A stretch of 64,000 nt of DNA from Candidatus Omnitrophota bacterium. Its GTDB lineage: Bacteria; Omnitrophota; Gorgyraeia; Gygaellales; Profunditerraquicolaceae. The position numbers and the translations under genes were made by a program. Of this stretch, positions 40,631-58,933 are shown in pieces. Where the stretch lies: positions 1,646-65,645 of the forward strand of contig JBAZGA010000007.1 of NCBI GenBank assembly GCA_041653115.1. The letters run 5' to 3'. How positions within the stretch are numbered: position 1 is the first letter of the stretch; every line of letters begins with the position of its first letter. A model generated the notes under the pieces. That model was not told the DNA's origin. It saw nothing but the letters and a program-made list of their open reading frames with translations, and searched no databases.

Positions 40631-40660
40631 TTGACAACAAGGCACTCTTTATGTTATTAT
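40631..40660 (+). promoter_or_regulatory. sigma70-like promoter TTGACA-18-TATTAT
   Basis: hexamers read directly; 80 nt upstream of 40741 start. Confidence 0.45.
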
Positions 40661-40684
40661 TGAATTAAGCTTTTAACAGACAGA

Positions 40685-40719
40685 GACGTCCGGAAGTTCT
40701 GGACGTCTTTTATTTTTTA
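40685..40719 (+). terminator. leader hairpin GACGTCC-N9-GGACGTC followed by T-run (attenuator-like) between promoter and nfnA-like gene
   Basis: perfect 7-bp stem plus TTTTATTTTTT; lies inside 5' UTR so likely regulatory. Confidence 0.45.
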
Positions 40720-40740: not shown

Positions 40741-41562
40741 GTGATGAAAATACTAAAAAAAGAAAATTTAGCTAAAGCAGTCACCAAAATAGAGGTTCTT
40801 TCCCCTGATATCGCCGGGAAAGCCAAGGCCGGCCAATTTATCAGCCTGATGGTCAGCGAAAAAGGAGAAAGGATCCCCCTGACCATCGTAGATAAGGAGG
40901 AAAATAAGGGGACGATTACCTTGATTTTTCAGGAAGCAGGCCTGACTACTAAGCTCCTGGGGAAATTAAACGCAGGTGATTCGCTGTACGCTTTAGCCGG
41001 ACCATTAGGGCATCCCACGGAAATTAAGCATTATGGGAAGGTAATTTTAGTCGGAGGCGGAGTGGGGATTGCGGAAATCTACCCTGTTGCCAAGGCATTA
41101 AAAGCGGCAGGGAACCAGCTTACGGTTATCTTAGGGGCAAGGAGTAAAGATTTACTGATTTTAGAGAAAGAGCTGAAAACGGTTGCGGATGAATTTTATC
41201 TGGTTACTGACGACGGCTCTTATGGGAAAAAAGGCTTTACCACCGATGTATTGGGAGAACTGCTAAAAAAAGATAAATACGATCTGGTGTACGCAGTCGG
41301 CCCCATCCCGATGATGAAAAAGGTCTCGCAGGTTACCGGAGGCCTTAACCTGAAGACCATAGTTTCTTTAAATGCCTTGATGGTGGATGCCACCGGTATG
41401 TGCGGATGCTGCCGGGTCAGCGTTTCAGGCAAGGTAAAGTTCAGCTGTATAGACGGCCCGGAATTTGACGCGCGCGAGGTCGACTGGGAGGAGCTGGAAA
41501 AAAGGAACCGTATTTACGAAGTTCAGGAAAAGCACATTTGTAAACTCTATAATTTATGCTGA
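40741..41562 (+). CDS. NfnA/SudB/PyrK-like FAD + [2Fe-2S] electron-transfer subunit
   Basis: ferredoxin-reductase-like fold, C-terminal GMCGCCRVS...C cluster. Confidence 0.6.
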   Translation: MMKILKKENLAKAVTKIEVLSPDIAGKAKAGQFISLMVSEKGERIPLTIVDKEENKGTITLIFQEAGLTTKLLGKLNAGDSLYALAGPLGHPTEIKHYGKVILVGGGVGIAEIYPVAKALKAAGNQLTVILGARSKDLLILEKELKTVADEFYLVTDDGSYGKKGFTTDVLGELLKKDKYDLVYAVGPIPMMKKVSQVTGGLNLKTIVSLNALMVDATGMCGCCRVSVSGKVKFSCIDGPEFDAREVDWEELEKRNRIYEVQEKHICKLYNLC

Positions 41563-41572
41563 ATTCATTTAA

Positions 41573-43000
41573 ATGAGAAAAGAGCCGGTAAAAGTAAAAG
41601 AATTAGCCGCCGCCAAAAGGACGGAGAGCTTTGCCGAAGTCGTTTTAGGTTACGGTGAAGAAGAGGCGCTGAGCGAAGCCTCCCGCTGCCTGCAATGCAA
41701 AAAGCCGATCTGCATTTCGGGCTGCCCGGTGGGCGTAGATATCAAAAAATTTATTTACCAGATTACGCAAAAGGATTATGCCGGAGCCTATTTTACGATT
41801 AGAGAGAAGAATAATTTTGCTTCCATTTGCGGCAGGGTTTGCCCGGCTGAGTACCAATGCCGGAAGGCCTGCGTCTTGAATTTAAATAAAAAAGACGCGC
41901 CTTTTGCTTCTCCGGAAGCGATAAATATCCATTTCCTGGAAAGGTTTGCCGGAGATTACGGGATAAAGCATGATTTGCAAGTTCCGGTAAAACCGGATAA
42001 ACGGCTCTCTCAATATAAAGTAGCAGTAGTCGGCTCAGGGCCGGCAGGCCTCTGTTGCGCAGGGGAACTGGCCAGGCGCGGGATAAAAGTCATGATTTTT
42101 GAAGGCCTGCATCAACCCGGAGGCGTTTTAAGATATGGTATCCCGCCTTTCAGGCTGCCGAGAGATATCCTGGATTTTGAGATAAATTATCTCATTAAGC
42201 TGGGAGTTGAAATTACCCCTAATTTTATTGTCGGCAGGGCGAAAACCCTGGACGAACTCTTTGAGGAAGAATTTTCCTGCATCTTTTTGGGATTAGGCGC
42301 AGGCGTACCGGGCTTCCTGGGCATAAAAGGAGAGAATTTAGACAATGTTTACTCCGCAAATGAGTTTTTAACCAGGGTTAATCTGATGTCCGCCTATAAA
42401 TTCCCCGAATTCCATACGCCGGTGAATATAGGCAAAGATGTATTAGTCATCGGAGGAGGAAATACCGCGATGGATGCTGCCAGGGCGGCGCTCAGGTTAC
42501 AAAAAATACGCGGAATCCCAGCCAATACCACAATTATCTACCGGCGCACGGAAACCGAGATGCCGGCAAGAAGGCTGGAAATAGAGCATGCCAGAGAAGA
42601 AGGGGTAAATTTTCAATTCCTGGTTCAGCCGCAGGAATTTATCGGCGATGAGCGGGGTTTTGTGAAAAAGCTGAGGTGCTTAAAGTGCCGCCTGGGAGAC
42701 CCCGATGAATCCGGCAGAAGAAGGCCCGTCGCCATTGAAGGAAGCGACTTTGAGATTGACGGTGATTTGGCGATTATCGCGGTCGGACTAAAGGCAAACC
42801 AGGTTTTAACCAGTATCACCCCGCAATTAAAAACGGATAAATACGGAGATATTATCGTCAACCCGGAAACCATGGAAACTTCTCTGCGGCAAGTTTTTGC
42901 CGGAGGGGACATTGTCGGCGGAGAAGGGACAATCATTGAAGCGATGGGCATGGCCAAAAAGGCTTCAGGCGCGATAATAGAATATTTAGAGAAAGCATAA
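41573..43000 (+). CDS. NfnB/GltD-like NADPH-dependent FAD/[4Fe-4S] oxidoreductase (glutamate synthase small-chain family)
   Basis: CLQCKKPICISGCP Fe-S motifs, two GxGxxG dinucleotide sites. Confidence 0.7.
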   Translation: MRKEPVKVKELAAAKRTESFAEVVLGYGEEEALSEASRCLQCKKPICISGCPVGVDIKKFIYQITQKDYAGAYFTIREKNNFASICGRVCPAEYQCRKACVLNLNKKDAPFASPEAINIHFLERFAGDYGIKHDLQVPVKPDKRLSQYKVAVVGSGPAGLCCAGELARRGIKVMIFEGLHQPGGVLRYGIPPFRLPRDILDFEINYLIKLGVEITPNFIVGRAKTLDELFEEEFSCIFLGLGAGVPGFLGIKGENLDNVYSANEFLTRVNLMSAYKFPEFHTPVNIGKDVLVIGGGNTAMDAARAALRLQKIRGIPANTTIIYRRTETEMPARRLEIEHAREEGVNFQFLVQPQEFIGDERGFVKKLRCLKCRLGDPDESGRRRPVAIEGSDFEIDGDLAIIAVGLKANQVLTSITPQLKTDKYGDIIVNPETMETSLRQVFAGGDIVGGEGTIIEAMGMAKKASGAIIEYLEKA

Positions 43001-43054: not shown

Positions 43055-44413
<1,359 letters not shown>

Positions 44414-44420
44414 ATATTAC

Positions 44421-44716
44421 TTGACAAGCCCCGGTTAATATGTTATCCTTTTTATGACAAGTAGGAGAAGGCACAAGGTCTGTGCCAAGGAAGGACAAAG
44501 GCGTTGAAAAGACGCCTTTTTTTGTTGTCCTTTCCATTTTCAGCGTAAGAAAAGTTGAAAAGGAATGTTCCTTATCGTTAGCAGGGTTTAGCTAACAAAT
44601 AAAACATTTCTTTTAGCAAACAATGGCGTTTTATGCCGCAATTTATGCGGCGTAAGACGCCTTTTTTATTGAGGCCACAACTTACGGAAGATAAAGCGCG
44701 AGGGATAAATTTAGCC
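44421..44716 (+). promoter_or_regulatory. structured 300-nt leader of the GAF-ANTAR gene: promoter-like TTGACA-17-TATCCT, hexaloop hairpins, and two tandem intrinsic terminators (44499-44527, 44649-44667)
   Basis: GGCACA-AGGTCT-TGTGCC, AGGCGT-tgaaaag-ACGCCT+T7, GTTAGC-AGGGTT-GCTAAC, CCGCA-ATTTAT-TGCGG, GGCGT-aag-ACGCC+T6. Confidence 0.5.
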
Positions 44717-45427
44717 ATGCCAAGATCATTTGCAGATCAACTCAAGGCTTTTTCCAAAATCAGCAAGGCGATTACTTCCGACCTCTATCTGGAAGATATT
44801 TTGCGTTTGATTGTGACGGTTACCGCGGAAGTCCTGGATTCAAATATCTGTTCTTTGATGCTTGTCGATGAAAAAACCAATGAACTGGTGGTGCGCGCCA
44901 CCCAGAGTATCAGCGAGGAATACAATAAAAAAGCGCCGCTCAAGGTTGGGGAAGGCATTGCCGGGAGAGTGGCTAAGGAGAATAAAGCTATCTCGGTAAA
45001 GGATGTCGCCAAGGAAAAGGAATATAAAAATAAGGATATTGCCAAGAAAGAGGGCTTGAATTCTTTATTGTGCGTACCGCTCTCGGTGAAGGGCAAGGTT
45101 ATCGGAGTGATTAATTGTTATACCCCCAAACCGCATGATTTTAGCGATACCGAAATCGAGATCCTCAGCACCATTGCCAATCAGGCGGCGGTAGCGATTG
45201 AGAATACGGAATTAATCGTAAAAAGCAAAGTCATCCAGGAAGAGCTGGAGACTCGCAAAAGAATTGAGCGCGCCAAAGGTATTTTAATGCGCGATGAAGG
45301 GTTGACCGAAGAGCAGGCTTATTTAAAAATTCGTAAATACAGTATGGATAACCGCAAGACCATGCGCGAAGTAGCCGAGGCGATTATCCTGGCGGCGGAT
45401 ATGAAACATTTAACCCGGGCGAAGTAG
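44717..45427 (+). CDS. GAF-domain + ANTAR-domain RNA-binding antitermination regulator (start moved downstream of terminator to ATG 44717 with GAGGGA RBS)
   Basis: GAF fold residues; C-terminal RAKGILM...LTEEQAYLKIRKYSMDNRKTMREVAEAII ANTAR consensus. Confidence 0.7.
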   Translation: MPRSFADQLKAFSKISKAITSDLYLEDILRLIVTVTAEVLDSNICSLMLVDEKTNELVVRATQSISEEYNKKAPLKVGEGIAGRVAKENKAISVKDVAKEKEYKNKDIAKKEGLNSLLCVPLSVKGKVIGVINCYTPKPHDFSDTEIEILSTIANQAAVAIENTELIVKSKVIQEELETRKRIERAKGILMRDEGLTEEQAYLKIRKYSMDNRKTMREVAEAIILAADMKHLTRAK

Positions 45428-45513
45428 CCCTCACGCTCATCAAGGGGCGTTCCCTTAATCCAGGCGGATTGATTTTGAAGAGATGAGCAAAGTAAAGAAG
45501 GAGGAAGAGGAAG

Positions 45514-47157
45514 ATGAATTTAGGCAGACCAAATGCAAACGACGCGGTAGGGACGTTTAACCGTTCAAAGAACGTGGTTCCGGGGTCAGGAATATGCTCG
45601 CGTTGCGTGGACGGCTGTAAAGGTAATTGCGATATTTTCAAAGCCACTTTCCGCGGCAGGGAAGTAATTTATCCCGGGCCTTTTGGCGAGATTACTGCCG
45701 GAGCGGACAAAAATTATCCGGTGGACTATTCCCATTTGAATATCCAGGGGTATGCTTTGGGGGCAAAGGGCTTGGCGGGAGACGCCCAAGGCAACTCTGA
45801 TAATACTAAATTTCCCGATGTGAATACTGAAACAGAATATGGCTGGGATATCAAGGTAAAGATGAAAGTGCCGATTTTTACCGGCGCCTTAGGCTCTACG
45901 GAAATTGCCCGTAAGAATTGGGAACATTTTGCCATCGGCGCTGCGATTTCCGGCGTGACGCTGGTTTGCGGCGAAAATGTCTGTGGCATTGACCCGGGAT
46001 TGGAGCTGGATGCCAAAGGCAAAATCAAGCATTCTCCGGAGATGGACCGGCGCATTGAAACTTATAAGCGCTTCCACGAAGGTTTTGGCGAGATCCTGGT
46101 GCAGATGAACGTTGAGGACACGCGCCTGGGAGTTGCCGAATATGTGCGTAAAAAACATAACTTGCAGACCATTGAATTAAAATGGGGCCAAGGCGCAAAG
46201 TGCATCGGCGGAGAGATAAAAGTAAAGAGCCTGGAAAGGGCGTTAGAATTACAAAAGCGCGGTTATATTGTTACTCCCGACCCTTCTTTGGAAGCCGTGC
46301 AAAAGGCCTTTAAAGACGGGGCAATCAAGGAGTTTGAGCGGCATTCCCGCTTAGGCTTTGTCTCGGAAGAATCTTTCCTGGCCGAGATTAAGCGCTTAAG
46401 GGATTTGGGTTTTAAGCGGATTACCTTAAAGACCGGCGCTTATTCCATGCGCGAGTTGGCAATGGCGATTAAATATTCTTCTTTGGCCAAAATCGATTTA
46501 CTGACTATTGACGGAGCTCCCGGAGGAACAGGAATGAGCCCCTGGCGGATGATGGAGGAATGGGGTATTCCTACCTTTTACCTGGAGGCATTGACCTATG
46601 AATTTGCTCAAAAACTGGCCAGGAAAGGGATGCGTATCCCGGATATTGCCATTGCCGGAGGTTTTTCCACTGAAGACCATGTCTTCAAGGTAATTGCCAT
46701 GGGCGCTCCTTATGTCAAGGCAGTCTGTATGGGCAGGGCCCTGATGATTCCCGGTATGGTCGGTAAAAATATTGCCGAGTGGCTGAAGGAAGATAAGCTT
46801 CCTCCCACGGTTTCAGCTTACGGCAAGACCGAAAAGGAAATATTCGTCTATTACGAAGAATTATTGGATAAGTACGGCAAAGAGATGAAAAATATCCCCC
46901 TGGGTGCAATAGGTATTTATTCTTTTGCGCAAAAGATCAGGGTTGGGCTGCAGCAGCTCATGGCCGGCAGCAGGAATTTCCGGTTGAGTTCAATTTCGCG
47001 GCGCGACCTGATGGCTTTGACCGAAGAGGCAGCCGAAGTTTCCGGTATTCCCTATGTGATGGAGGCTTTTCGTCAGGAGGCAGAGGCAGTACTAAACGGT
47101 AACGGCAGGACGCGAAATTCCAATCACCGCAAGACAAGAGTTATGGCAGGGAGGTAG
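45514..47157 (+). CDS. stand-alone glutamate-synthase FMN-binding domain (GltB domain 2, archaeal-type) protein with N-terminal Cys cluster
   Basis: LLTIDGAPGGTGMSPW... region typical of glutamate synthase central domain; CSRCVDGCKGNC. Confidence 0.6.
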   Translation: MNLGRPNANDAVGTFNRSKNVVPGSGICSRCVDGCKGNCDIFKATFRGREVIYPGPFGEITAGADKNYPVDYSHLNIQGYALGAKGLAGDAQGNSDNTKFPDVNTETEYGWDIKVKMKVPIFTGALGSTEIARKNWEHFAIGAAISGVTLVCGENVCGIDPGLELDAKGKIKHSPEMDRRIETYKRFHEGFGEILVQMNVEDTRLGVAEYVRKKHNLQTIELKWGQGAKCIGGEIKVKSLERALELQKRGYIVTPDPSLEAVQKAFKDGAIKEFERHSRLGFVSEESFLAEIKRLRDLGFKRITLKTGAYSMRELAMAIKYSSLAKIDLLTIDGAPGGTGMSPWRMMEEWGIPTFYLEALTYEFAQKLARKGMRIPDIAIAGGFSTEDHVFKVIAMGAPYVKAVCMGRALMIPGMVGKNIAEWLKEDKLPPTVSAYGKTEKEIFVYYEELLDKYGKEMKNIPLGAIGIYSFAQKIRVGLQQLMAGSRNFRLSSISRRDLMALTEEAAEVSGIPYVMEAFRQEAEAVLNGNGRTRNSNHRKTRVMAGR

Positions 47158-47159
47158 TG

Positions 47160-47333
47160 ATGAAAAACAAAGGTCTCTGCAGCACTTGTAACGCGGACAA
47201 GGCTTGCGTTTTCCAGCGCCGCTTTCCGGTTTTAGAGTGCGAGGAATTTAACGATTTTACAAACCATAAATATGCCGTAAAAATAAAACCGAAAAGGGCC
47301 AATTTCAGCGAAGAAGCAACTGAAGCAGAGTAA
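47160..47333 (+). CDS. possible 57-aa Cys-rich protein (CSTC...C...C) translationally coupled to preceding gene
   Basis: GTGATGA overlap with upstream stop; below ORF-track cutoff. Confidence 0.3.
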   Translation: MKNKGLCSTCNADKACVFQRRFPVLECEEFNDFTNHKYAVKIKPKRANFSEEATEAE

Positions 47334-47434
47334 GAGGCCAACGTAGGCTTAGCACATATTCAGCAACAGGACTAAAGGCGGTCCAAAAATCCAGCGATGG
47401 ACAAAGGGCCGCTTTTTATTTAAAAGAGGGTATT

Positions 47435-47959
47435 ATGCGTTTCGAAGAATTAGTGAAGAAAATCAGTCCGAAGCTGAAGGCAATCGCACATAAGCTTAAC
47501 GGCCGTTTTGCCTATCTTGGCGAAGAAGACTTATGCCAGGAGGCGCTGGCGCATCTCTGGCTGGATTTTCAGCAGGGTAAATTGGACGACAAGACAGAAA
47601 GTTATATTTTGCAAGGTTGTTATTTCCATCTCAAGAATTACCTGCGTAAGGCCGGGGATAAGGCCAGCCTCTTCAGCTTTGAGTTTATGCTCAATGAGGA
47701 GGGAGAAGCCCTTGATTTACAGAATATCCTGCCGCTGGAGAGCGCCGAGCCCGATTACCATTCCCGGTTTCTTATTGAGCAGATCAGGAACGACGGCTTG
47801 ACCAAGAGAGAAAAAGAGGTTTTCGAATTTTCCCTGGAAGGGTTGACCACGCGGGAAATCGGCTTGCGCCTGGGCATTTCTCATGTCCGGGTAGTCAAAT
47901 TGAAGAAAAAAGTTAAAGAGAAATGTAAAAAATATTTAGACGACCCCGCCTTAATCTAG
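47435..47959 (+). CDS. ECF-type sigma-70 family RNA polymerase sigma factor
   Basis: region 2 (DLCQEALAHLW) and region 4 HTH (TTREIGLRLGISHVRV). Confidence 0.6.
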   Translation: MRFEELVKKISPKLKAIAHKLNGRFAYLGEEDLCQEALAHLWLDFQQGKLDDKTESYILQGCYFHLKNYLRKAGDKASLFSFEFMLNEEGEALDLQNILPLESAEPDYHSRFLIEQIRNDGLTKREKEVFEFSLEGLTTREIGLRLGISHVRVVKLKKKVKEKCKKYLDDPALI

Positions 47960-48020: not shown

Positions 48021-48716
48021 ATGAAAGAAAAGATTCTGATTGTTGATGACGAAAAAGATATAGTCAGGATGCTTGACTATAACCTGAAGAAGGACGGATT
48101 CAGGACGCTTTCCTGCCATGACGGAGAGGACGCATTGGACCTCGCCGGCCGCGAGCACCCGGACTTAATTATCCTGGACCTGATGCTGCCTGGTATGGAC
48201 GGTTTGGAAGTTTGTAAGACCCTGAAAAAAGAAAATAAAACTTCAAATATCCCGATAATTATGCTGACTGCCAAGGCCCAGGAGGCGGATAAGGTAGTGG
48301 GGTTAGAGTTGGGCGCGGATGATTACGTAACCAAGCCGTTCAGCCCGCGTGAGTTAATTGCCAGGGTAAAGGCGGTTTTACGCCGGGTGAAAGAAAAAGA
48401 AAAATTACCGGAAATTTTAAGGGTCGGCGAATTAACTATCGATTTTTCTAAAATTCAGGCCAGCGTAAAAAATAAACCGCTTGAACTTACCGCAAAGGAA
48501 TTCGAATTGTTAACCGCCTTGCTTAAAGTAAAAGGAAGGGTCCTCTCCCGCGATTATCTTTTAGACAGCATCTGGGGTTTTGACCATGCGCTGGAAATTC
48601 AAACCCGCACTGTTGACGTGCATATCCGGACGCTGCGCAAAAAACTGGGAAAAGAAGCAAAGCGGATTATTACCGTGAAGAACTACGGCTACCGCTTTGA
48701 TACAGATGAAGATTAA
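48021..48716 (+). CDS. phoB: OmpR/PhoB-family response regulator
   Basis: receiver Asp in IILDLMLPGMDG, winged-helix C-terminus; genomic context with phoR/pst. Confidence 0.8.
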   Translation: MKEKILIVDDEKDIVRMLDYNLKKDGFRTLSCHDGEDALDLAGREHPDLIILDLMLPGMDGLEVCKTLKKENKTSNIPIIMLTAKAQEADKVVGLELGADDYVTKPFSPRELIARVKAVLRRVKEKEKLPEILRVGELTIDFSKIQASVKNKPLELTAKEFELLTALLKVKGRVLSRDYLLDSIWGFDHALEIQTRTVDVHIRTLRKKLGKEAKRIITVKNYGYRFDTDED

Positions 48717-50484
48717 GAAGCACAGCCTTAAATTAAAATTAATCTTTTCTTATGTCCTCATCATCGCGCTTTCTTTCGGGCTCGCCGCCTATTTTTTAAA
48801 CAGAAATCTAGAAGAAAATTCCCTGCGGGAAATTAAATCCTCGTTAATCAGCCAGGGCTGGTTGGTTGTAGCCCAAATCCCTCAAGACGACATCAAGAAT
48901 GGAAACACGCCACGCCTGCAAACATTAGCAAAGACTTTAAGTGCAAGTATAAAATCCCGCTTGACTATAATCAGTAGACAAGGCAAGGTTTTAGCCGATT
49001 CTGAAAAACCGGAAAGCGGTGTTCTGAAGATGGAGAACCACGCCCAGCGGCCGGAAATAAAAGAAGCTTTAGCCGGGGCAATCGGAGAAGAAATCCGCTA
49101 TTCTTCAACACTTAAGATGGATATGCTTTATGTGGCTTTGCCCGTCCCGGAGAAAGGCCAAATTTTAGGCGTAGTCCGCTTAGCGCTTCCTCTTGCCAGC
49201 GTGCAAAAAACATTATTCAGCGTAAGAAAAGCAATTTTATTCAGCATCCTTTTTGCTTTAGGTTTAAGTCTTGTCCTGGGTTCTTTATTGACGCAGGCGA
49301 CGATTAAACCGATTAATAAGATTATCCTTGCTTCGCGTAGATTCTCCGCGGGAGAATTCAGCCATAAAATATTAATTGATACCCGGGATGAAATCGGGGA
49401 GCTCGCGGCTACCTTAAATAAGATGGCAGAAGGGCTGGAGGCTAAAATTAAGGAAGTAGAAATACAGAACCAGCACCTCAGGGCAATCTTACGGACTATG
49501 GTAGAGGGTATTATCGTTACGGATAAGTCCGGCCGCATTATTTCGATTAATCCTACGGTGGAAAAGATATTTAATATTACTCAACAAGGCGCTGAAGGCA
49601 AGCTTCTTCTGGAAGCGGTGCGCAATAACGACATTGCGGAGATTATCAACGCTGTTTTAAAAAACGGTAAATTTATCTCCCAGGAGCTTAATCTGGTATT
49701 GCCGGCGCAGGGGATATTTAAAATTAACGCCTCTCCTATTTTTGAAAAAGACGCGGTAATCGGATGTTTATTGGTAATTCACGACATAACCGAAATGCGC
49801 AGGTTAGAAACGATGCGCCGTGATTTTGTGGCTAATGTTTCACACGAATTAAAGACGCCGCTTACCTCTATTAAGGGGTTTGTAGAGACGCTCCTTGAGG
49901 GAGCGATGGAAGACAGGGAAAACAGCCGCCATTTTTTGGGGATTATCCAGAATCATAGTGAGCGGCTGAATAACCTGATCAATGATTTACTCGACCTTTC
50001 GCACATTGAATCCAGAGAAATAAAATTAGAAATCACCGATTTCAGCCTGCGGGGATTGACGGAAGAGGTCTTATCCGGTTTTAAGTCAAAAGCTAAAGAG
50101 AAGGCCCTTGAGATAACCAACGCATTAGATAAGGCTTTATCGGTGAAGGCGGACAAAGATAAGATAGAGCAGGTTCTGACTAACCTGGCGGATAATGCGA
50201 TTAAGTTCAACCGGCAGAACGGGACGGTTAGGATTTATTCCGAGGGCTTAGGAGAAAAGATCAAGGTTACCATAGAAGATTCCGGTATCGGCATCCCTGC
50301 CAAAGATCTCTCCCGCATCTTTGAGCGTTTTTACCGCGTGGATAAAGCGCGCTCGCGCGAATTAGGCGGCACGGGCCTGGGGCTTTCCATCGTCAAGCAT
50401 ATCGTAGAATTGCACGGCGGTTCGGTCGGCGTCGAAAGCAGCGAGGGCCTAGGCTCAAAATTCTGGTTCACCCTTCCGCAGTAA
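48697..50484 (+). CDS. phoR: sensor histidine kinase PhoR-like (TM, HAMP, PAS, HisKA, HATPase)
   Basis: ANVSHELKTPL H-box, GTGLGLSIVK G-box. Confidence 0.8.
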   Translation: MIQMKIKKHSLKLKLIFSYVLIIALSFGLAAYFLNRNLEENSLREIKSSLISQGWLVVAQIPQDDIKNGNTPRLQTLAKTLSASIKSRLTIISRQGKVLADSEKPESGVLKMENHAQRPEIKEALAGAIGEEIRYSSTLKMDMLYVALPVPEKGQILGVVRLALPLASVQKTLFSVRKAILFSILFALGLSLVLGSLLTQATIKPINKIILASRRFSAGEFSHKILIDTRDEIGELAATLNKMAEGLEAKIKEVEIQNQHLRAILRTMVEGIIVTDKSGRIISINPTVEKIFNITQQGAEGKLLLEAVRNNDIAEIINAVLKNGKFISQELNLVLPAQGIFKINASPIFEKDAVIGCLLVIHDITEMRRLETMRRDFVANVSHELKTPLTSIKGFVETLLEGAMEDRENSRHFLGIIQNHSERLNNLINDLLDLSHIESREIKLEITDFSLRGLTEEVLSGFKSKAKEKALEITNALDKALSVKADKDKIEQVLTNLADNAIKFNRQNGTVRIYSEGLGEKIKVTIEDSGIGIPAKDLSRIFERFYRVDKARSRELGGTGLGLSIVKHIVELHGGSVGVESSEGLGSKFWFTLPQ

Positions 50485-50752
50485 GCGGACACCAAACCAT
50501 CCGATAGGTTTGGGGGCTCCGTATTGACCTTCTGATTTTACCCACTTTTTACTTATCCTTGAAGCAGATTTAATCCCTCCAGTTTATACTTTAGGCGTGA
50601 TGAAAATCTTTCGCAAGTTTATAATCCGTTTTAAAAAATTTCTAATGGCGATTATCGCCGAAGAGATTGAGGCGATGGACAGCTTCTATAAACAATATGC
50701 CTAGAAATCATTATGAAAAATATGAAGACAGGAAGGAGGTGAAGAAAAGGGC

Positions 50753-50950
50753 ATGGAAACTATCTCACCTATACGCAGGGAGTTTGTGGCCAGCCACCTG
50801 CGTTCTCAGCTAGAAAGGTTGCGCAGAGTAGTCGGCAATATTGAAGTTGAGGACGCCAGAGACCGCTTTTACGCCAAGGAATCCCTCAGAGAAATAGAGG
50901 CGAATCTCCGCCGGATAAGAAAGTTGAACATGAATCACTATCATCATTAG
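50753..50950 (+). CDS. hypothetical 65-aa protein
   Basis: GGAGG RBS; helical, His-rich end NMNHYHH. Confidence 0.3.
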   Translation: METISPIRREFVASHLRSQLERLRRVVGNIEVEDARDRFYAKESLREIEANLRRIRKLNMNHYHH

Positions 50951-50969
50951 GTAAAGGGAGGAAAGAGAA

Positions 50970-52262
50970 ATGAAAAAGCTGTTATGTCTGATATTGGCAG
51001 TGTGTTTTTGGGTATCGTTGATAATAACCAATTCCTATGCCGGAGAAATTGACATCCTTTTGCAGAAGTTGGTCGAAAAGGGTGTTTTAACCGGCGCAGA
51101 AGCCCAGCAGATTAAGGTTGAGACCAAAGAGGCGGTTAAGAAAGAAATCGTTGCAGGTAAATCCGAAACTTTGCCCGCCTGGGTTCAGGCAATCAAGATA
51201 AAGGGGGATTTCAGGGGAAGGTATCAGTATAACCACGGCAAATCAACAGCCACTTCGACAACCGAGCGCCACAGGGCGCGCATCAGATTACGCCTCGGCG
51301 TGGAAGGTAAGGTAAATGACAAGCTGAAAGTCGGCGTTGGTTTGGCTACGGGCTTAAATTCGACCGAGAGTAGCAGTACGTTAAGCGCTGATTATGCGCG
51401 CTCGACGAACCAGACTTTATATGAAGGTTTTTCAAAGAAAGGCATAGGTCTGGATTATGCTTATGCCGAATACGCGTTTTCGCCCTGGGGCAATTTTATC
51501 GGCGGCAAATTTAAGAATCCCCTCTGGGAGCCGGGTGACCTGATTTGGGATACGGATATAAATCCTGAGGGCGCAGCGCTTAATTTAAATAAGAAATTAA
51601 TGCTGGGCGGGTTAGGATTAAACGTATTCTCTACTACGGGAGTTTTCCCTCTTGATGAAAGTAGCTCTAGCGGAGACGATCCGATGATGTATGTCCAGCA
51701 AGCGGGATTAACCCATAATTTAACCGATACCATATCACTGAAAACCGCACTGGCTTATATGTATACCTCAACGCAAGGAGACACCCTGGACGGCACCACA
51801 AGCACAAATACTACTCCCCTTGAAGACTTCAGTATGTTGACTCCTGCCGTAGAGCTGAAATTCAAGGAGCCTTTTAAGTTTCTGGGTGTGGGTTTCTTAA
51901 ACATACCGAGCTTGACGCTTTTCGGAGAATATGTAAAGAATACCCATGCGCCGAATGACAAGAAGGATACCGGCTTTATGACCGGCTTAAAATTTGGCGC
52001 GGAAAAGATAGAAGGCTGGGGAGATTGGCAGGCAAGTTATAACTTTGCCGCTTTACAAAAAGATGCCATATTGGATATATTGCCTGATTCTGACCGTTAT
52101 GGCGGACAGACCGGTGTAAGGGCCCATGAAGCCAAGTTTTCATACGGATTAGGCAAGAATACCTGGTTTGATTTGGATATCTACCGGGCTCAAAGATGGC
52201 GTGCCGGAGTTGCCAGGGCTCCAGAGACAGTATTTCAGGCGGATTGGAACATGAAATTTTAG
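50970..52262 (+). CDS. outer-membrane porin (signal peptide, N-terminal helical segment, barrel ending in Phe); likely phosphate-associated by context
   Basis: architecture similar to porin at 3410; terminal ...WNMKF; upstream of pstS. Confidence 0.5.
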   Translation: MKKLLCLILAVCFWVSLIITNSYAGEIDILLQKLVEKGVLTGAEAQQIKVETKEAVKKEIVAGKSETLPAWVQAIKIKGDFRGRYQYNHGKSTATSTTERHRARIRLRLGVEGKVNDKLKVGVGLATGLNSTESSSTLSADYARSTNQTLYEGFSKKGIGLDYAYAEYAFSPWGNFIGGKFKNPLWEPGDLIWDTDINPEGAALNLNKKLMLGGLGLNVFSTTGVFPLDESSSSGDDPMMYVQQAGLTHNLTDTISLKTALAYMYTSTQGDTLDGTTSTNTTPLEDFSMLTPAVELKFKEPFKFLGVGFLNIPSLTLFGEYVKNTHAPNDKKDTGFMTGLKFGAEKIEGWGDWQASYNFAALQKDAILDILPDSDRYGGQTGVRAHEAKFSYGLGKNTWFDLDIYRAQRWRAGVARAPETVFQADWNMKF

Positions 52263-52286
52263 GCAGGATAAAGGAGGATTATACAA

Positions 52287-53099
52287 ATGAAAGCGATAGG
52301 TAAATTACTGCTTCTCGGTTTAATGATGGCCGGTCTTGTGCTTCCCTGTTACGCGGAAAAAATTGTTATTGAAGGCTCGACTACGGTTTTGCCCATTGCT
52401 CAAAAAGCAGCCGAAGAATTTATGGATATGCATTCGGGAGCGAATCTTTCCGTACGCGGCGGCGGCTCAAGCGTGGGTATTGCCTCGATGATTGACGGAA
52501 CATGCGATATCGCGGACGCATCGCGCGCGATTAAAGATACGGAATTAGATAAAGCAATGACCAACGGCCGAGACCCGGTTGCGCATATCGTGGCTATGGA
52601 CGGGATAGCGGTAATAGTCCATCCCTCAAGCAGAATAAATGCGTTGAGCAAAAAACAGGTGAAAGCAATTTTTACCGGCCAAATTTCAGACTGGTCGCAG
52701 GTCGGCGGACAGCCCGGGAAAATCGTGGCGATTTCCCGCGATTCATCAAGCGGGACCTACGAAGCATTCGGAGAACTGGTATTGGATAAACAAAAGCCCA
52801 GGGCCGATGCCTTATTACAAGCCTCTAATCAGGCAGTTACCCAGACAGTGGCGAGGACGCCTGCTGCAATCGGGTATGTAGGATTAGGCTATGTCTCTTC
52901 TTCGGTTAAGGCGCTGGAAATCGATGGCGTGATGCCTTCAAAAGAGACGGTCCTTTCCGGTAAATATCCCGTTACGAGACCTCTGTTTATGTACACAAAT
53001 GGACAGCCGCAAGGCGCGATAAAAGAGTTTATGGACTTTGTGAAAAGTGAACAGGGACAAAGAATCGCCGAGGAGGAAGGATTTGTGGGGTTAAAGTAG
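52287..53099 (+). CDS. pstS: phosphate ABC transporter substrate-binding protein
   Basis: signal peptide, GSTTV...RGGGSSVG motif. Confidence 0.8.
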   Translation: MKAIGKLLLLGLMMAGLVLPCYAEKIVIEGSTTVLPIAQKAAEEFMDMHSGANLSVRGGGSSVGIASMIDGTCDIADASRAIKDTELDKAMTNGRDPVAHIVAMDGIAVIVHPSSRINALSKKQVKAIFTGQISDWSQVGGQPGKIVAISRDSSSGTYEAFGELVLDKQKPRADALLQASNQAVTQTVARTPAAIGYVGLGYVSSSVKALEIDGVMPSKETVLSGKYPVTRPLFMYTNGQPQGAIKEFMDFVKSEQGQRIAEEEGFVGLK

Positions 53100-53156
53100 G
53101 CAATAAGCGTTTACTCATTTAACCTCAGAGAGCACGGCAGGAAGAGCTTTTCTGCC

Positions 53157-54065
53157 GTGTTCTCGCATGAGATTAACGAAATGGTTCGCTTAAAAGAAAA
53201 AATTTATCAATGGATATTTAGTATTCTGGCGTTTTCCTCCTTATTTTTCCTGGTCGGCATTATCATCGTTCTTTTTAAAGAGTCGCTGCCCCTGTTCAGT
53301 AAAATAAAACTCTCGAGTTTTCTCTTTGGTAAGTCGTGGTACCCAACATTTGACCCTGCGGAATTCGGCATTCTGCCTTTGATATTGGCTTCGCTATGGG
53401 TGACATTTGGAGCTTTGCTTGTCTGCGTGCCTTTAGGAATAGGAAGCGCCTTGTATTTGAATGAGTTAGCCGGACACAAGCAAAAGGCGATATTAAAGCC
53501 GTTAATTGAAATATTGGCAAGTATCCCTTCTATTGTCTACGGGTTTTTTGGAATGGTGGTGATGGCGCCTTTCCTGCAGAACCTGCTGGATTTGCCTATC
53601 GGCTTATGCGCTTTTACCGCAAGTATAATTTTAGGTATTATGGCTGTTCCTACTGTCTGCAGCATTGCCGAAGACGCCTTGAGTTACGTCCCGGCAGCTT
53701 TTAGAGAAGCATCCTTTGCCCTGGGCGCTAATCGCTGGCAGACATTAATCAAGGTAGTAATACCTGCTGCCGGCTCGGGAATCTCTACGGCAATTATTTT
53801 GGGTATCAGCAGGGCAATCGGGGAAACGATGACGGTTTTAATGGTCGCCGGAGGCGCTGCGGTCATTCCCAAATCTTTCTTTGATCCGGTCAGGCCGATG
53901 ACCGCAGCTATTGCCGCAGAGATGGGCGAAGCTCCTCTTGGGAGCCTGCATTATCACGCGCTATTCAGCATCGCGCTTATTTTATTTCTGGTTACCTTTG
54001 TCTTTAATATCATTGCTGAATTAATCAGCAGAAGATTCAGGTTAAAACTGGGATTGGCAGGATGA
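53157..54065 (+). CDS. pstC: phosphate ABC transporter permease PstC
   Basis: 6 TM, EAA-like loop; ATGA overlap with pstA. Confidence 0.8.
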   Translation: MFSHEINEMVRLKEKIYQWIFSILAFSSLFFLVGIIIVLFKESLPLFSKIKLSSFLFGKSWYPTFDPAEFGILPLILASLWVTFGALLVCVPLGIGSALYLNELAGHKQKAILKPLIEILASIPSIVYGFFGMVVMAPFLQNLLDLPIGLCAFTASIILGIMAVPTVCSIAEDALSYVPAAFREASFALGANRWQTLIKVVIPAAGSGISTAIILGISRAIGETMTVLMVAGGAAVIPKSFFDPVRPMTAAIAAEMGEAPLGSLHYHALFSIALILFLVTFVFNIIAELISRRFRLKLGLAG

Positions 54066-54910
54066 AGAAAGATATTACGCAGAATGTCGGGTTTGCTTTT
54101 CTGATTATGTGCATATTGATTACTTTGTTTTTTCTTTGCGCAATCATTTATTTTATCGGGATAAGGGGGATAAAGGTCATATCCTGGGAGTTTCTCACTC
54201 AATCTCCCCGGGCTGCGATGACCAGGGGCGGGGTTGCCCCGGCAATCGAAGGACCGTTTTAACTTACTCTGGGAGCGATTTTATTTGCCCTTCCCTTAGG
54301 GCTAGCATGCGCAATTTATCTTTGCGAATATAGCCCTAAGGGTTTTGCCGTCAACATCATCCGCATGAGTATTAATAACCTGGCGGGAGTGCCTTCCGTA
54401 GTCTTCGGCCTTTTTGGCCTGGCGGTATTCGTAAAATTCTTTGGCTTCGGAGTATCCATGCTTTCGGGAAGCCTCACCCTTGGCATACTCGTATTTCCCT
54501 TGATAATTTCCGCAGCCCAGGAAGCGCTCCTGGCAGTACCGCTTTCGCTGCGCGAGGCGTCGCTGGCATTAGGCGCAACTCAATGGCAGACGATTAAAAA
54601 AGTAGTTTTACCCACTGCGCTTCCCGGGTTACTTACCGGAGTAATCTTAAGTATCGGCAGGATCGCCGGAGAAACCGCCCCGATTCTTTTTACTGCCGCG
54701 GCATTTTATCTGCGGGGATATCCCCGGTCGATATTTTCTGAAGTCATGGCCCTGCCTTATCATATTTATGCGCTGATGACGGAAGGGACCCACCCCCGGG
54801 AGCAGACGGCAATTGCCTACGGTTGCAGCCTGATACTTTTATTCTTGGTTTTATTAGTTTCGGGTATTGCCATTATTATGCGTCAGAAGCAGAGGAGCAT
54901 GCATGGATAG
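54062..54910 (+). pseudogene. pstA: phosphate ABC transporter permease PstA interrupted by a single in-frame TAA (54260-54262); both halves in same frame
   Basis: translation reads ...AIEGPF*LTLGAILFALPLGLACAIYLCEYSPKG... continuous PstA sequence across the stop. Confidence 0.65.
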
Positions 54911-55667
54911 CGCAGTAAAAATGAGAGCGCAAAACGTAAATTTCTTTTACGGCAAAACGCAAGCGCTTAAGAATATTAATCTGGTTGTTTATTCCAATAA
55001 AGTTACCGCGATCATCGGGCCTTCGGGATGCGGAAAGTCAACATTCATCAGGCAGCTTAACCGGATGAATGAATTGATCGCCAATACGCGCTGCGAAGGA
55101 GAAATTACTTTAGACGGAACGGATATCTGTTGCGACAGCATAATAGATGCGGTAGAGGTCAGGAGGCGCATCGGCATGGTTTTTCAAAAACCCAACCCCT
55201 TTCCCAAGAGCATCTTTGAAAATATAGCTTACGGGTTACAGGTAAACGGCATAAAAGACAGGCAGTTTATCGAAGATAGGGTTGTTGAATCGTTAAAGAG
55301 GGCGGTGCTCTGGGAGGAAGTTAAGGGCCGCTTACATGAGAGCGCTTTAAAGCTTTCGGGTGGACAACAACAAAGACTTTGCATTGCCCGCTGCCTGGCG
55401 GTGGAGCCGGAGGTAATACTTTTTGATGAGCCCTGCGCCAGCCTTGATCCCATTTCTACGGGAAAAATTGAGGAGCTGATCCTTGAATTAAAAAAAGATT
55501 ACAGCATCGTGATTGTCACGCACAATATGCAGCAGGCGGCCCGCGTCTCGGATTACACCGGATTTTTTCTCCTGGGCGAATTGATAGAATTTGGAAAAAC
55601 CGAAGACATATTTACCAAACCCCGGGACAAACGCACGGAAGATTATATTACCGGAAGGTATGGTTAA
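54903..55667 (+). CDS. pstB: phosphate ABC transporter ATPase
   Basis: Walker [10 protein letters not shown], signature LSGGQQQRL, Walker B ILFDEP. Confidence 0.85.
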
Positions 55668-55676
55668 GGAGGCCAG

Positions 55677-56345: not shown

Positions 56346-56400
56346 GGAAGAGAGAGTTACCAAAAGAAGGCTTTTTTTACTTGTATTGATGTAGATTTAA

Positions 56401-56517
56401 ACACGCTGAGGTGTAAGCAGGTTAGGGCGTTCTAAAAAAGGAACGCCGTTTTTTATAAAATATTTTAGACGCAGGCGTCTTTTAGGCCCGTAGTCGGACT
56501 ATCAGGACGCCTTTTTT
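56401..56517 (+). promoter_or_regulatory. leader with hexaloop hairpin (ACAC-GCTGAG-GTGT) and two tandem terminator hairpins (GGCGTTC-N8-GAACGCC+T6; AGGCGTC...GGACGCCT+T6) upstream of PII-like/amtB/glnK
   Basis: stems and T-runs read directly; short hairpin GACG-CAGG-CGTC overlaps 5' arm of second terminator. Confidence 0.5.
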
Positions 56518-56880: not shown

Positions 56881-57057
56881 ATGCTGGACAGGGAATTGAT
56901 TGATAAGCTCAAAACTTTTAAAGAGGAGAATGAGTATACCTTGTGCGATCTTTCCAGGAAGATTGATGTCCAGGTAACAACCCTGGAGCGCTGGCTTAAG
57001 ACCGGACGGATAAACAAACTATACGCCAGGATCGTGAGGGAGCGATTGGGGATTTAA
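56881..57057 (+). CDS. possible 58-aa helix-turn-helix protein between PII-like gene and amtB
   Basis: YTLCDLSRKIDVQVTTLERWLK HTH-like; below ORF-track cutoff; weak RBS. Confidence 0.25.
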   Translation: MLDRELIDKLKTFKEENEYTLCDLSRKIDVQVTTLERWLKTGRINKLYARIVRERLGI

Positions 57058-58868: not shown

Positions 58869-58933
58869 TTTATAACCGGGGTTACCAAAAAAGGCAATTT
58901 TTTACTTGTATAAGTGAGAGCTTAAAGTTTAGG

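Follow-up and report, generated by a model that had tools for sequence, protein, structure and literature searches.

The 64,000-nucleotide stretch of Candidatus Omnitrophota DNA analysed here (the window) encodes, at 44717-45427 on the plus strand, a 236-residue protein that combines a GAF domain with an ANTAR domain. With a probability of roughly 70%, we propose from sequence analysis that this protein is a nitrogen-status-responsive one-component antiterminator, which would positively autoregulate its own operon and control a nitrogen-assimilation regulon.

According to a Pfam search, GAF_2 spans residues 25-162 (E 4.8e-26, 92 bits) and ANTAR (PF03861) residues 174-224 (E 7e-22, 77.4 bits where the gathering threshold is 27.3, covering profile positions 4-54 of 54), while Response_reg, NIT and PAS gave no match. 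The two strong matches bear out the first-pass annotation, which had proposed an N-terminal GAF and a C-terminal ANTAR domain and had named this check; lying in a single polypeptide, they make the architecture a one-component one. The ANTAR region resembles chains of Rv1626, EutV and NasR, and the solved ANTAR proteins 1s8n, 6wsh and 4akk were matched. Similarity to Rv1626 and EutV is confined to residues 135-225, and the protein falls outside the response-regulator ANTAR class (EutV, GnfR, PdtaR). In the AlphaFold2 model (pLDDT 84.6) a continuous helix, residues 144-194, joins the GAF fold to the ANTAR domain, which continues with helices 198-212 and 216-234.

A longer reading frame, 44633-45427, is also present, and its ATG sits within the 5′ arm of the second terminator described below. 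The true start is ATG 44717, as had been suggested together with its ribosome-binding-type GAGGGA (44700-44705): homologues are 234-237 residues long and align from residue 1. A leader peptide starting at ATG 44633 was considered and rejected, the extension being missing in most orthologues. Because the start codon of most orthologues directly follows terminator 2, the frame from ATG 44633 is not conserved and a leader peptide is unlikely.

The gene lies behind a leader of about 260 nt with a conserved anatomy, in which two intrinsic terminators stand in series. The tandem terminators had been recognized in the first-pass annotation, and both are conserved in orthologues; the promoter that it had placed at 44421-44449 carries an extended TG and is likewise conserved, the motif CTTGACAA...TGTTAnnnT being kept in the aligned orthologous leaders. 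This promoter begins 8 nt past the gdhA stop codon (44411-44413). The leader folds at -85.3 kcal/mol (z = -8.3), and none of 200 shuffles was as good. Its elements are as follows.

44421-44449, plus strand: sigma-70-type promoter of the regulator operon, TTGACA-17-(TGt)TATCCT, score 10/12 with TG
44470-44486, plus strand: H1, P1 hairpin of attenuator 1, GGCAC-AAGGTCT-GTGCC, loop fitting R-R-N-G-T (A1, G4)
44489-44534, plus strand: outer helix GGAAGGACAA / TTGTCCTTTC around terminator 1, in the minimum-free-energy fold
44494-44505, plus strand: P2a, ANTAR-type hexaloop hairpin GAC-AAAGGC-GTT, 7 nt past H1, overlapping the 5′ arm of terminator 1
44497-44523, plus strand: terminator 1, AAAGGCGTT-gaaaa-GACGCCTTT plus T-run (hairpin 44497-44519, T7), -11.2 kcal/mol
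44538-44573, plus strand: second dual-hairpin unit, H2 TTTC-AGCGTAA-GAAA (44538-44552) and H3 AAGG-AATGTT-CCTT (44560-44573), 7-nt linker
44577-44596, plus strand: H4, GTTAGC-AGGGTTTA-GCTAAC, 8-nt loop starting A-R-N-G-T
44618-44631, plus strand: P2b, ANTAR-type hexaloop hairpin AAAC-AATGGC-GTTT, overlapping the 5′ arm of terminator 2, proposed antiterminator element
44625-44667, plus strand: terminator 2, 16-bp hairpin GGCGTTTTATGCCGCA-attta-TGCGGCGTAAGACGCC (44625-44661) plus T6, -27.4 kcal/mol

Both terminators consist of a GC-rich hairpin followed by a U-tract, as expected of Rho-independent termination. The first had been described with its T7 and has its hairpin at 44497-44519. For the second, position 44633 does lie inside the hairpin, as claimed, but the hairpin is not the 5-bp GGCGT-aag-ACGCC: it has 16 bp and spans 44625-44661. 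We thus rejected GGCGT-aag-ACGCC and CCGCA-loop-TGCGG as separate elements, both being parts of this one hairpin. The hexaloop hairpins named at the outset were individually wrong, having loops of 5, 7 or 8 nt or forming a terminator tip. GGCACA-AGGTCT-TGTGCC is really the 17-nt GGCAC-AAGGTCT-GTGCC, or else a stem of 6 bp closing a loop of 5 nt; the loop of GTTAGC-AGGGTT-GCTAAC is the 8-nt AGGGTTTA; and CCGCA-ATTTAT-TGCGG is the tip of terminator 2, whose loop is not conserved. The mechanistically important hairpins, P2a and P2b, were missing from that list.

The leader holds six A-A-N-G hairpins, and several loops have 7-8 nt rather than 6. In an alignment of 25 leaders, 97.6% of the cells of H1 are paired, its outer two pairs are compensatory, and the G and T of its loop are invariant. 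H4 has compensatory changes in four of six pairs and was recovered independently by RNAalifold. Terminator 2, which RNAalifold also recovered, is 95% paired with compensatory changes in five pairs, and close orthologues keep terminator 1 some 150-235 nt ahead of their start codon. H3 has a competitor in a long-range stem that extends to 44603-44613; 8 of the 14 pairs of this stem have changed on both sides. The outer helix around terminator 1 (nine pairs, three changed on both sides, 77% paired) would be able to form only after read-through, and would then tie up the 5′ strand of P2a. Applied to the leader in full, RNAalifold found H1, H4 and terminator 2, plus an A-tract/U-tract pairing, but nothing else; the gappy loop of terminator 1 explains why it missed the remaining elements.

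The pairing of each P2 hairpin and that of its terminator are mutually exclusive, and they co-vary. P2b is 100% paired in the 25 leaders, its outer pair being AU in 20 and GC in five; the 3′ column of this pair also pairs within terminator 2, as UA in 19 and CG in four, which amounts to a three-way covariation. When the same 25 orthologous leaders were scored for the hairpins of the bound state, pairing came to 92.1% and both bases had changed in 10 pairs, a result that none of 500 shuffles reached (slid controls, 37-52% paired); for the terminator state the corresponding figures are 85.7% and 27 pairs. The loops keep their sequence, whereas the stems vary. In 70 P2 elements, found by a search that imposed only loop positions 1 and 4, the loop consensus is A (86%) A (87%) N G G (73%) C (79%), in agreement with the published AAHGRH / AGCAANGRRGCUY consensus. 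Upstream of orthologues, 70 of 106 terminators bear a P2; in the rest of the window the figure is 6 of 105 terminator-like hairpins. The RNAfold-based finder used for calling them over-calls (111 candidates in the window), and its surplus calls serve as background. An alternative antiterminator, ATAAAAC/GTTTTAT, exists in the window and was discarded, as it is not conserved in two of the orthologous loci (L001 and L002).

P2a (AAAGGC) and P2b (AATGGC) each have the 6-nt loop with A1 and G4 and the overlap with a terminator 5′ arm that define a canonical P2, and the loop of P2a is that of the Klebsiella oxytoca nasF P2 in the published seed. In attenuator 1, H1 precedes P2a by 7 nt with a loop of 6-7 nt, compared with the published P1, an A1/G4 hexaloop at 5-12 nt. 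In attenuator 2, no A1/G4 hairpin was found within 15 nt upstream of P2b; the nearest is H4, with its 8-nt loop, 21 nt off. A covariance model of 27 published sequences, from Firmicute and Klebsiella sites only, was run over 128 kb and matched 44618-44650 (13.9 bits, E 0.13) and 44471-44506 (11.8 bits, E 0.45). Each match is individually weak; together they are two of the top four. The P2b region is the second-best match in the window, and H1 forms the P1 half of the match at 44471-44506. In the window the model did not recover the glnA, P-II, sigma factor and gltA-like leaders described below, so it cannot define the regulon alone. Rfam 15 gave no match at gathering score in the whole window, and none that was relevant at E up to 10 within 40000-64000.

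The regulator has a conserved neighbourhood of nitrogen genes. Its position between gdhA and a gltB-domain gene, stated in the first-pass annotation, agrees with Pfam, which assigns a Glu_synthase domain to the downstream product. The region behind the regulator contains the following two features.

45435-45488, plus strand: structured intergenic RNA, no terminator; stem GCTCATC/GATGAGC around AAGGG-gcgtt-CCCTT and AATCC-aggc-GGATT
45514-47157, plus strand: second operon gene, 547-residue glutamate-synthase-domain protein (Pfam Glu_synthase)

Because the intergenic RNA lacks a terminator, the regulator and the next gene should be co-transcribed; only 2 of 48 gltB-domain genes have an upstream terminator of their own. 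A gltB-domain gene is the immediate downstream neighbour in 41 of 80 species-level loci, and nitrogen genes (gltB-domain, gdhA, glnA, amtB, P-II, gltA-like) occur in the flanks of 57 of the 80. At least one upstream terminator overlapped by an ANTAR-type hexaloop hairpin is present in 47 of 60 orthologues. Homologues thus co-occur with nitrogen genes and with structured leaders, the outcome of the neighbourhood comparison proposed beforehand. Two observations had been named in advance as contrary to the proposal, absence of the ANTAR domain and lack of any such co-occurrence; both were looked for, and neither was made.

In eight related loci (L004, L005, L007, L012, L014, L016, L032, L050) a second GAF-ANTAR paralogue, 54-64% identical, lies beside the locus or before the gltA-like operon. 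No second ANTAR gene was found within the 64-kb window, and none of the eight upstream regions of the paralogues has a P2-overlapped terminator. A metagenome scan with AAACRATGGCGTTTTAT returned at least 120 stretches; the matches listed include 11 true orthologous leaders and one weak ANTAR stretch of 26% identity, the rest being chance.

The same terminator logic had been claimed for other genes of the window, and we see it before the gltA-like/gdhA operon and the ECF sigma, P-II and glnA genes. In total the window has seven P2-type attenuators in five nitrogen-related leaders, two of them in the regulator leader and five elsewhere.

40631-40710, plus strand: leader of the gltA-like/NfnAB-like and gdhA operon, promoter TTGACA-18-TATTAT; P2 GAC-AGAGAC-GTC (40679-40690); terminator 40683-40709
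47335-47415, plus strand: leader of the ECF sigma gene (47435-47959), AGGCC-AACGTA-GGCTT; P2 GGACT-AAAGGC-GGTCC (47369-47384); terminator 47375-47415
56401-56512, plus strand: leader of the P-II gene (56538), first of two attenuators, P1 ACAC-GCTGAG-GTGT, P2 TTAG-GGCGTT-CTAA, terminator 56426-56447
Within 56401-56512, plus strand: second attenuator of the P-II gene leader, P2 AGAC-GCAGGC-GTCT (56467-56480); terminator 56473-56512
58933-59018, plus strand: glnA leader, GCAC-ATTGTA-GTGT; P1 TTAG-GCAGAG-CTAA; 4-nt linker; P2 GAAC-ACAGGC-GTTC (58969-58982); terminator 58975-59018

P1 and P2 of the first P-II attenuator are separated by 7 nt. Some of the ANTAR-type loops begin with G rather than A. 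Four of seven homologous gltA-like leaders contain xGAC-AAAGAC-GTCx. In related loci, P2-overlapped terminators are uncommon before amtB (2 of 18) and glnA (2 of 11). Many of the amtB and glnA genes in these loci are distant paralogues (about 40% identity). The terminators of the glnA leader and of the second P-II attenuator are bulged. Two further hexaloop hairpins, at 22465 and 26615, fall within small reading frames, have no terminator and were put down to chance. The element GTTACC...ACTTGT was rejected as a sigma-54 or sigma-70 promoter, its GG-to-TG spacing being neither 12 nt nor constant and no -35 standing at 17 nt; it fits better as a promoter for an alternative sigma factor.

By sequence and fold, the GAF domain is closest to that of EI-Ntr (PtsP) and next to that of NifA. 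The top NCBIfam matches of the regulator are PtsP (9.4e-18) and NifA (1.7e-16), with scores far under the full-length cut-offs, since the match is confined to the GAF domain. The PtsP GAF domains 3trc and 3ci6 are the named PDB sequence matches and take Foldseek PDB ranks 1-3 (TM 0.82-0.87). The GAF domain of NifA senses 2-oxoglutarate. That of EI-Ntr binds glutamine (PMC4848567). Given this resemblance to both, cellular nitrogen status is the likely input, the ligand may be glutamine or 2-oxoglutarate, and the 2-oxoglutarate/Gln response suggested in the first-pass annotation gains indirect support; the identity to EI-Ntr and NifA GAF domains is about 25-30%, a level that does not define the ligand.

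How might the parts work together? In the mechanism that we propose, the sigma-70 promoter would drive the operon of the regulator and the glutamate-synthase-domain gene into the two-terminator leader, and without active regulator most transcripts would end at terminator 1 or terminator 2. Active regulator, presumably dimeric, would bind small hairpins with A-A-N-G loops. As P2a and P2b would each use the first 7-9 nt of the 5′ arm of their terminator, a P2 stabilised by the regulator would block terminator folding, and RNA polymerase would read through. Since the regulator is the first gene behind both attenuators, positive feedback with a two-step threshold would result. The same element in the gltA-like/gdhA, ECF sigma, P-II and glnA leaders suggests that the regulator probably coordinates ammonium assimilation. 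We infer that the regulator itself, rather than another protein, binds its leader, and on the same footing we infer what the signal is and in which direction it acts, with what stoichiometry the six hairpins are occupied, and the status of a “master regulator”.

Could the leader be operated by something other than its own product? If a paralogue or a response-regulator ANTAR protein worked these attenuators, the gene would be the target of a cascade and not autoregulated. GAF-ANTAR paralogues do occur near the locus in eight related loci, and with a visible genome portion of only 64 kb other ANTAR proteins may exist. Nevertheless, the window holds no second ANTAR gene, no other target is conserved as consistently as the self-leader (present in 47 of 60 orthologues, with or without a paralogue close by), and the P2-overlapped terminators absent before all eight paralogues argue in the same direction, so that we regard this arrangement as unlikely. 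Much less probable still is that both elements are ordinary constitutive terminators and the hairpins merely stabilise RNA, with no regulated antitermination. No terminator separates the gdhA stop (44413) from the promoter (44421), and terminator 1 therefore probably also ends the gltA-like/gdhA transcript; a role confined to this, however, would not account for two terminators between a conserved promoter and the start codon, for a leader kept where the upstream gene is not gdhA (e.g. L001, L002 and L013), for the co-variation of the P2b 5′ strand with the terminator arm, or for conserved loops on variable stems.

A riboswitch sensing a metabolite such as glutamine, or another protein-independent attenuator, would suit the strong structure (z = -8.3), the alternative pairings with covariation and the setting in a nitrogen gene cluster. 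The leader is, however, a row of small hairpins in which a single A-A-N-G loop motif, matching the published ANTAR consensus, keeps returning, and not a compact junction or pocket; relaxing the Rfam search to E up to 10 brought no relevant family, leaders that are otherwise dissimilar contain the same short element, and the frame from ATG 44633 speaks against a leader peptide, as noted above. We therefore give this explanation very little weight. Equally improbable in our view is a leader acting mainly beyond termination, through short transcripts that serve as a sponge for the regulator (cf. EutX/Rli55 on EutV) or through translational control, of which mycobacterial ANTAR RNAs provide a reported precedent (10.1101/660928). 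Six A-A-N-G hairpins exceed the need of two dimers, a dual-hairpin structure with no terminator lies before the next gene, and in most orthologues the ATG follows the U-tract of terminator 2 by 6-10 nt, leaving no room for a Shine-Dalgarno sequence. Yet in the window 50 nt, GAGGGA included, separate terminator 2 from the ATG, and both elements are canonical stem and U-tract terminators; such action would supplement antitermination rather than replace it.

Antitermination by the GAF-ANTAR protein itself has several parallels. The dual-hexaloop eut leaders of Enterococcus faecalis, controlled by EutV/EutW (Ramesh et al. 2012, PMC3369931), share with our locus the ANTAR output, A1/G4 hexaloop hairpins of which one lies over the 5′ base of the terminator, and regulons of several attenuators each; AAUGGC and AAAGGC occur as loops both at the published sites and in the regulator leader. 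On the other hand, EutV has a phosphorylated receiver and ethanolamine genes as targets, whereas the regulator here has a GAF input, no adjacent kinase partner and ammonium-assimilation genes as predicted targets, and its leader differs from the eut leaders in having some 7-8-nt loops, an attenuator 2 without a partner at 5-12 nt, and extra competing helices. In Geobacter sulfurreducens the ANTAR protein of the GnfK/GnfR pair acts on terminators in nitrogen-gene leaders, glnK and amtB included, in a layer over separate initiation control (Ueki and Lovley 2010, PMC2995071); we suspect a comparable layer in the ECF sigma factor. GnfR belongs to the response regulators and has a histidine kinase as its partner, unlike the one-component GAF protein here, and is described for nitrogen-fixation genes; as far as the accessible part of that report goes, it has no self-leader.

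NasR of Klebsiella oxytoca (PMC7496416), which with the light sensor PAL made up the one-component ANTAR proteins studied by 2020, also has a ligand domain fused to ANTAR via a helical linker, and its nasF P2 hairpin, GGAU-AAAGGC-GUCC, hardly differs from the P2 elements of our leaders. Its sensor, in contrast, is a NIT domain (nitrate/nitrite) with NIT-specific autoinhibition rather than a GAF domain, and it has a single target operon and does not stand behind its own leader. EI-Ntr and NifA, whose GAF domains are nitrogen-status sensors and the best matches of ours (about 25-30% identity), have a phosphotransferase or sigma-54 activator output in place of the predicted RNA binding.

Nitrogen regulons under ANTAR control, self-leaders included, were already predicted in 2012. 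Table S2 of Ramesh et al. (PMC3369931) has predicted ANTAR RNAs before P-II, amtB, glutamine synthetase and glutamate synthase genes in Carboxydothermus hydrogenoformans and Desulfotomaculum acetoxidans; in the former, an RNA element precedes an ANTAR response regulator, glutamine synthetase and, further on, a glutamate synthase-like protein, the same self-leader layout. These Firmicute regulators belong to another lineage, are annotated as response regulators and are predictions only. What is new here is the type of sensor, GAF. Since control of nitrogen genes by ANTAR antitermination is an established principle, we would regard the advance as an incremental rather than a conceptual one.

A wider reading can be put forward tentatively, although we think it rather more probably wrong than right: in Omnitrophota and some neighbouring candidate phyla, a glutamine- or 2-oxoglutarate-sensing GAF-ANTAR protein, not NtrBC/sigma-54, GlnR/TnrA, NtcA or NrpR, might govern ammonium assimilation in a coherent feed-forward arrangement with a dedicated ECF sigma factor. 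The GAF-ANTAR protein would antiterminate the leader of the ECF sigma gene; the sigma factor would drive amtB, P-II and glnA from GTTACC-N17-ACTTGT promoters, and these transcripts would again bear ANTAR attenuators. The six-hairpin, two-terminator self-leader would produce thresholded positive feedback, and the extra helices, formed only after read-through, might reset or recycle the regulator.

GAF-ANTAR is among the commonest ANTAR architectures, yet, as the first-pass annotation had supposed, no characterised member was found in the searchable literature. The locus offers a full testable set: a 236-residue regulator, an RNA target with two attenuators, a glutamine/2-oxoglutarate hypothesis and a recognisable nitrogen regulon. 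Its tandem self-attenuator and terminator-enclosing helices may be of interest to builders of RNA switches. For the Omnitrophota, described as a phylum without isolated members (PMC10066038), it would offer a first view of nitrogen regulation.

The window is part of a Candidatus Omnitrophota genome, and the product of the ORF matches a deposited "GAF and ANTAR domain-containing protein" at 100% identity. The ATG of the mechanically called ORF (44633-45427) falls within a hairpin. Homologues are nearly all 234-237 aa long, and their alignment to the ATG-44717 product begins at its residue 1; therefore the regulator gene is 44717-45427 (236 aa), with the start proposed in the first-pass annotation. 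As that annotation had also read, a GAF domain (Pfam GAF_2, residues 25-162, E 4.8e-26) precedes a C-terminal ANTAR domain (residues 174-224, E 7e-22); the Pfam search found no receiver, NIT or PAS domain. In an AlphaFold2 model (pLDDT 84.6) the final helix of the GAF fold, residues 144-194, runs unbroken into the ANTAR helices.

Among named proteins, the GAF domain is most closely related to 3trc and 3ci6, GAF domains of PtsP/EI-Ntr, and to the NifA-like Nlh1, with PtsP (9.4e-18) and NifA (1.7e-16) ranked top by NCBIfam and 3trc and 3ci6 by Foldseek (TM 0.82-0.87). The GAF domain of NifA binds 2-oxoglutarate. That of EI-Ntr binds glutamine (PMC4848567). By analogy, these relationships support nitrogen status as the input of the regulator, without proving it.

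Genes around the regulator
40741-43000, GltA-type/NfnAB-like pair
43076-44413, gdhA
44717-45427, GAF-ANTAR regulator
45514-47157, glutamate-synthase-domain protein (gltB-domain gene)
47435-47959, ECF sigma factor
48021-56345, phosphate-regulon island
56538, P-II
57185, amtB
58530, P-II
59054, glnA
60574, amidotransferase
61335-61562, Fis-like HTH protein
from 61564, start of large gltB

We compared 80 species-level loci and at least 11 metagenomic loci. The suggested co-occurrence of homologues with nitrogen genes was borne out: 57 of the 80 species-level loci have a nitrogen-assimilation gene in their flanks. Because the gltB-domain gene directly follows the regulator in 41/80 loci and has its own terminator upstream in only 2/48, regulator and enzyme form one operon. 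The intergenic region between them (45435-45488) holds a conserved three-way RNA structure and no terminator. Its outer stem is GCTCATC/GATGAGC in the window, with covariation to GCCCA/TGGGC among orthologues, its inner hairpins are AAGGG-gcgtt-CCCTT and AATCC-aggc-GGATT, and some 12 nt separate its end from the downstream gene's AAGGAGG. The loops read AATGT in some orthologues, so an additional ANTAR site may influence translation or stability here. Three small unannotated-looking ORFs also lie within the nitrogen cluster: 47160-47333 (a 57-aa Cys-rich protein starting immediately after the gltB-domain stop codon), 56881-57057 (58 aa, between P-II and amtB) and 61335-61562 (75 aa, an HTH protein resembling Fis and the NtrC C terminus, just before the large gltB).

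A promoter scan places TTGACA-17-TATCCT with an extended TG, kept in orthologues, at 44421-44449. The leader RNA has a folding energy of -85.3 kcal/mol versus -50.9 ± 4.2 in shuffles (z = -8.3).

Terminators and small hairpins of the regulator leader
44497-44519, terminator 1: AAAGGCGTT-gaaaa-GACGCCTTT, then T7
44625-44661, terminator 2: 16-bp hairpin, -27.4 kcal/mol, then T6
H1: GGCAC-AAGGTCT-GTGCC
P2a: GAC-AAAGGC-GTT
H2: TTTC-AGCGTAA-GAAA
H3: AAGG-AATGTT-CCTT
H4: GTTAGC-AGGGTTTA-GCTAAC
P2b: AAAC-AATGGC-GTTT

Scan, fold and conservation thus uphold the main earlier observation, a promoter and a leader with two terminators before a GAF-ANTAR gene. Three hairpins had been mis-transcribed, the actual loops being 5-7, 8 and 5 nt rather than 6, and the described second terminator and CCGCA hairpin are two portions of one long hairpin. 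All six small hairpins have loops starting R-A/G-N-G, and the 5' arm of a terminator contributes its first nucleotides to each of P2a and P2b. The transcript of gdhA, upstream, probably ends at terminator 1 as well.

Across 25 aligned orthologous leaders the loops are conserved and the stems variable. Pairing in the six-hairpin set reaches 92.1%, both sides having changed in 10 pairs; 0/500 shuffles equal this (slid controls, 37-52% paired). For the alternative, terminator-state structure the corresponding figures are 85.7% and 27 pairs. The outer pair of P2b is A-U in 20 sequences and G-C in 5, and the terminator pair using the same 3' nucleotide switches in step (U-A in 19, C-G in 4). Three-way covariation of this kind marks antiterminator and terminator pairings that exclude each other.

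A co-varying helix GGAAGGACAA/TTGTCCTTTC (44489-44498 with 44525-44534) surrounds terminator 1 and its U-tract; it is possible only after read-through, when P2a would lose its 5' strand, and its role may be to free the regulator or to stabilise the read-through transcript. A long stem AAAAGGAATGTT/AACATTTCTTTT (44557-44613) encloses H4 and excludes H3, with covariation in both (8/14 pairs of the long stem), suggesting that the H2/H3 unit may be coupled in a relay to attenuator 2, the unit of P2b and terminator 2. In most orthologues, eight named loci among them, the ATG (context TTTAGCCATG) lies only 6-10 nt past the terminator 2 U-tract and lacks a Shine-Dalgarno sequence; in most lineages terminator 2 may have a second role, gating the initiation of translation. 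The window and three related loci carry an insert of about 40-100 nt here, that of the window (44668-44716) being about 45 nt and including GAGGGA.

The published ANTAR target consists of two short hexaloop hairpins whose loop positions 1 and 4 are A and G, respectively, a 5-12 nt linker, a second hairpin overlapping the terminator base and the consensus AGCAANGRRGCUY; the alignments give P1, the partner hairpin, as SYAC-AAHGRH-GUDB and P2 as RRGY-AAHGDV-GCYY, and their members include AAUGGC and AAAGGC as loops and, from nasF, the hairpin GGAU-AAAGGC-GUCC (Ramesh et al. 2012). The 70 Omnitrophota P2 loops, found by imposing positions 1 and 4 only, have the consensus A-A-N-G-G-C with a C-G closing pair. 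In attenuator 1 (terminator 1 with its hairpins) the 7-nt linker conforms to the canonical geometry, and the loop of H1 is 6-7 nt. In attenuator 2, P2 is canonical and no partner hairpin lies within 15 nt; H2/H3 instead form a separate dual-hairpin unit, and H3 competes with the co-varying long-range stem (helix 5 of the terminator-state structure). A covariance model built from 27 published, non-Omnitrophota sites was searched against 128 kb. Two of its four best window matches, each weak alone, lie in the regulator leader: 44618-44650 (13.9 bits, E 0.13) and 44471-44506 (11.8 bits, E 0.45), the latter aligning exactly H1-linker-P2a. Two of four falling within one 260-nt stretch of the 128 kb is unlikely to be chance; the other window leaders were not recovered in this search.

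An RNAfold-based scan of the window found terminators overlapped by hexaloop hairpins in five leaders, with such overlap in only 6/105 other terminator-like hairpins.

Leaders with hexaloop-overlapped terminators
40683, terminator start, gltA-like/gdhA operon
44497 and 44625, terminator starts, regulator gene
47375, terminator start, ECF sigma gene
56426 and 56473, terminator starts, P-II gene
58975, terminator start, glnA

The structured leaders predicted for homologues were likewise found: 51/60 orthologues have an upstream terminator, 47/60 at least one that carries P2 and 22/60 two or more, with a P2 on 70 of 106 terminators in all.

Could a different ANTAR protein operate the regulator leader? 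GAF-ANTAR paralogues are present in related genomes, which speaks for this, and we consider it unlikely. A second paralogue (54-65% identity) occurs in many of them (ten named loci), either as the orthologue's immediate upstream neighbour or ahead of the gltA-like operon; the 64-kb window holds none, and hexaloop-overlapped terminators were found upstream of 0/8 paralogues. A protein-independent riboswitch would need no regulator, but no Rfam family matches, either at gathering score in the whole window or, relevantly, at E up to 10 in 40000-64000, and we give it very little credence. Leader terminators that act constitutively are highly improbable, and there is only a slight chance that the leader serves as a sponge or translational control element.

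In the mechanism that we favour, basal transcription of the regulator operon would be halted twice, at terminators 1 and 2. The active regulator would stabilise P2a and P2b along with their partner hairpins, so that RNA polymerase would read into the regulator and gltB-domain genes, and read-through into the regulator's own gene would give positive feedback. Termination at the other nitrogen leaders would be relieved by this protein too. We infer the ligand, its sign, self-binding and stoichiometry.

ANTAR control of nitrogen genes was widely predicted in 2012, and in one predicted case an ANTAR gene is preceded by an RNA element of its own, with glutamine synthetase and a glutamate-synthase-like gene after it (Ramesh et al. 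2012). For GnfR, such control has been established by experiment. By 2020 the only characterised one-component ANTAR proteins were NasR and PAL. The searchable literature yielded no characterised GAF-ANTAR protein, in agreement with the earlier remark that GAF-ANTAR nitrogen regulators are not known to have been characterised.

The leader terminators of the ECF sigma gene (47375-47415) and glnA (58975-59018) are long, interrupted hairpins whose tips are small hexaloop hairpins, TCC-AGCGAT-GGA with an A1/G4 loop and CGGTCAT-TGCCAA-ATGACCG, respectively. The motif GTTACC-N17-ACTTGT has exactly two copies in the window (56356-56384 and 58881-58909), at the starts of the P-II and glnA leaders. Eleven related Omnitrophota loci hold 14 matches, every one on the gene strand; 10 lie directly downstream of the ECF sigma gene and 8 no more than 260 nt ahead of amtB, P-II or glnA. 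In the window the phosphate block (48021-56345; OmpR-type regulator, PAS/HAMP histidine kinase, porin, pstS-like, pstC/A, pstB, phoU) separates the sigma gene from the P-II/amtB/glnA cluster, and in related loci the element and amtB or P-II come directly after the sigma gene. GTTACC-N17-ACTTGT is a candidate promoter for the ECF sigma factor. If it serves this factor, whose own leader carries an ANTAR-type attenuator, a feed-forward loop would result.
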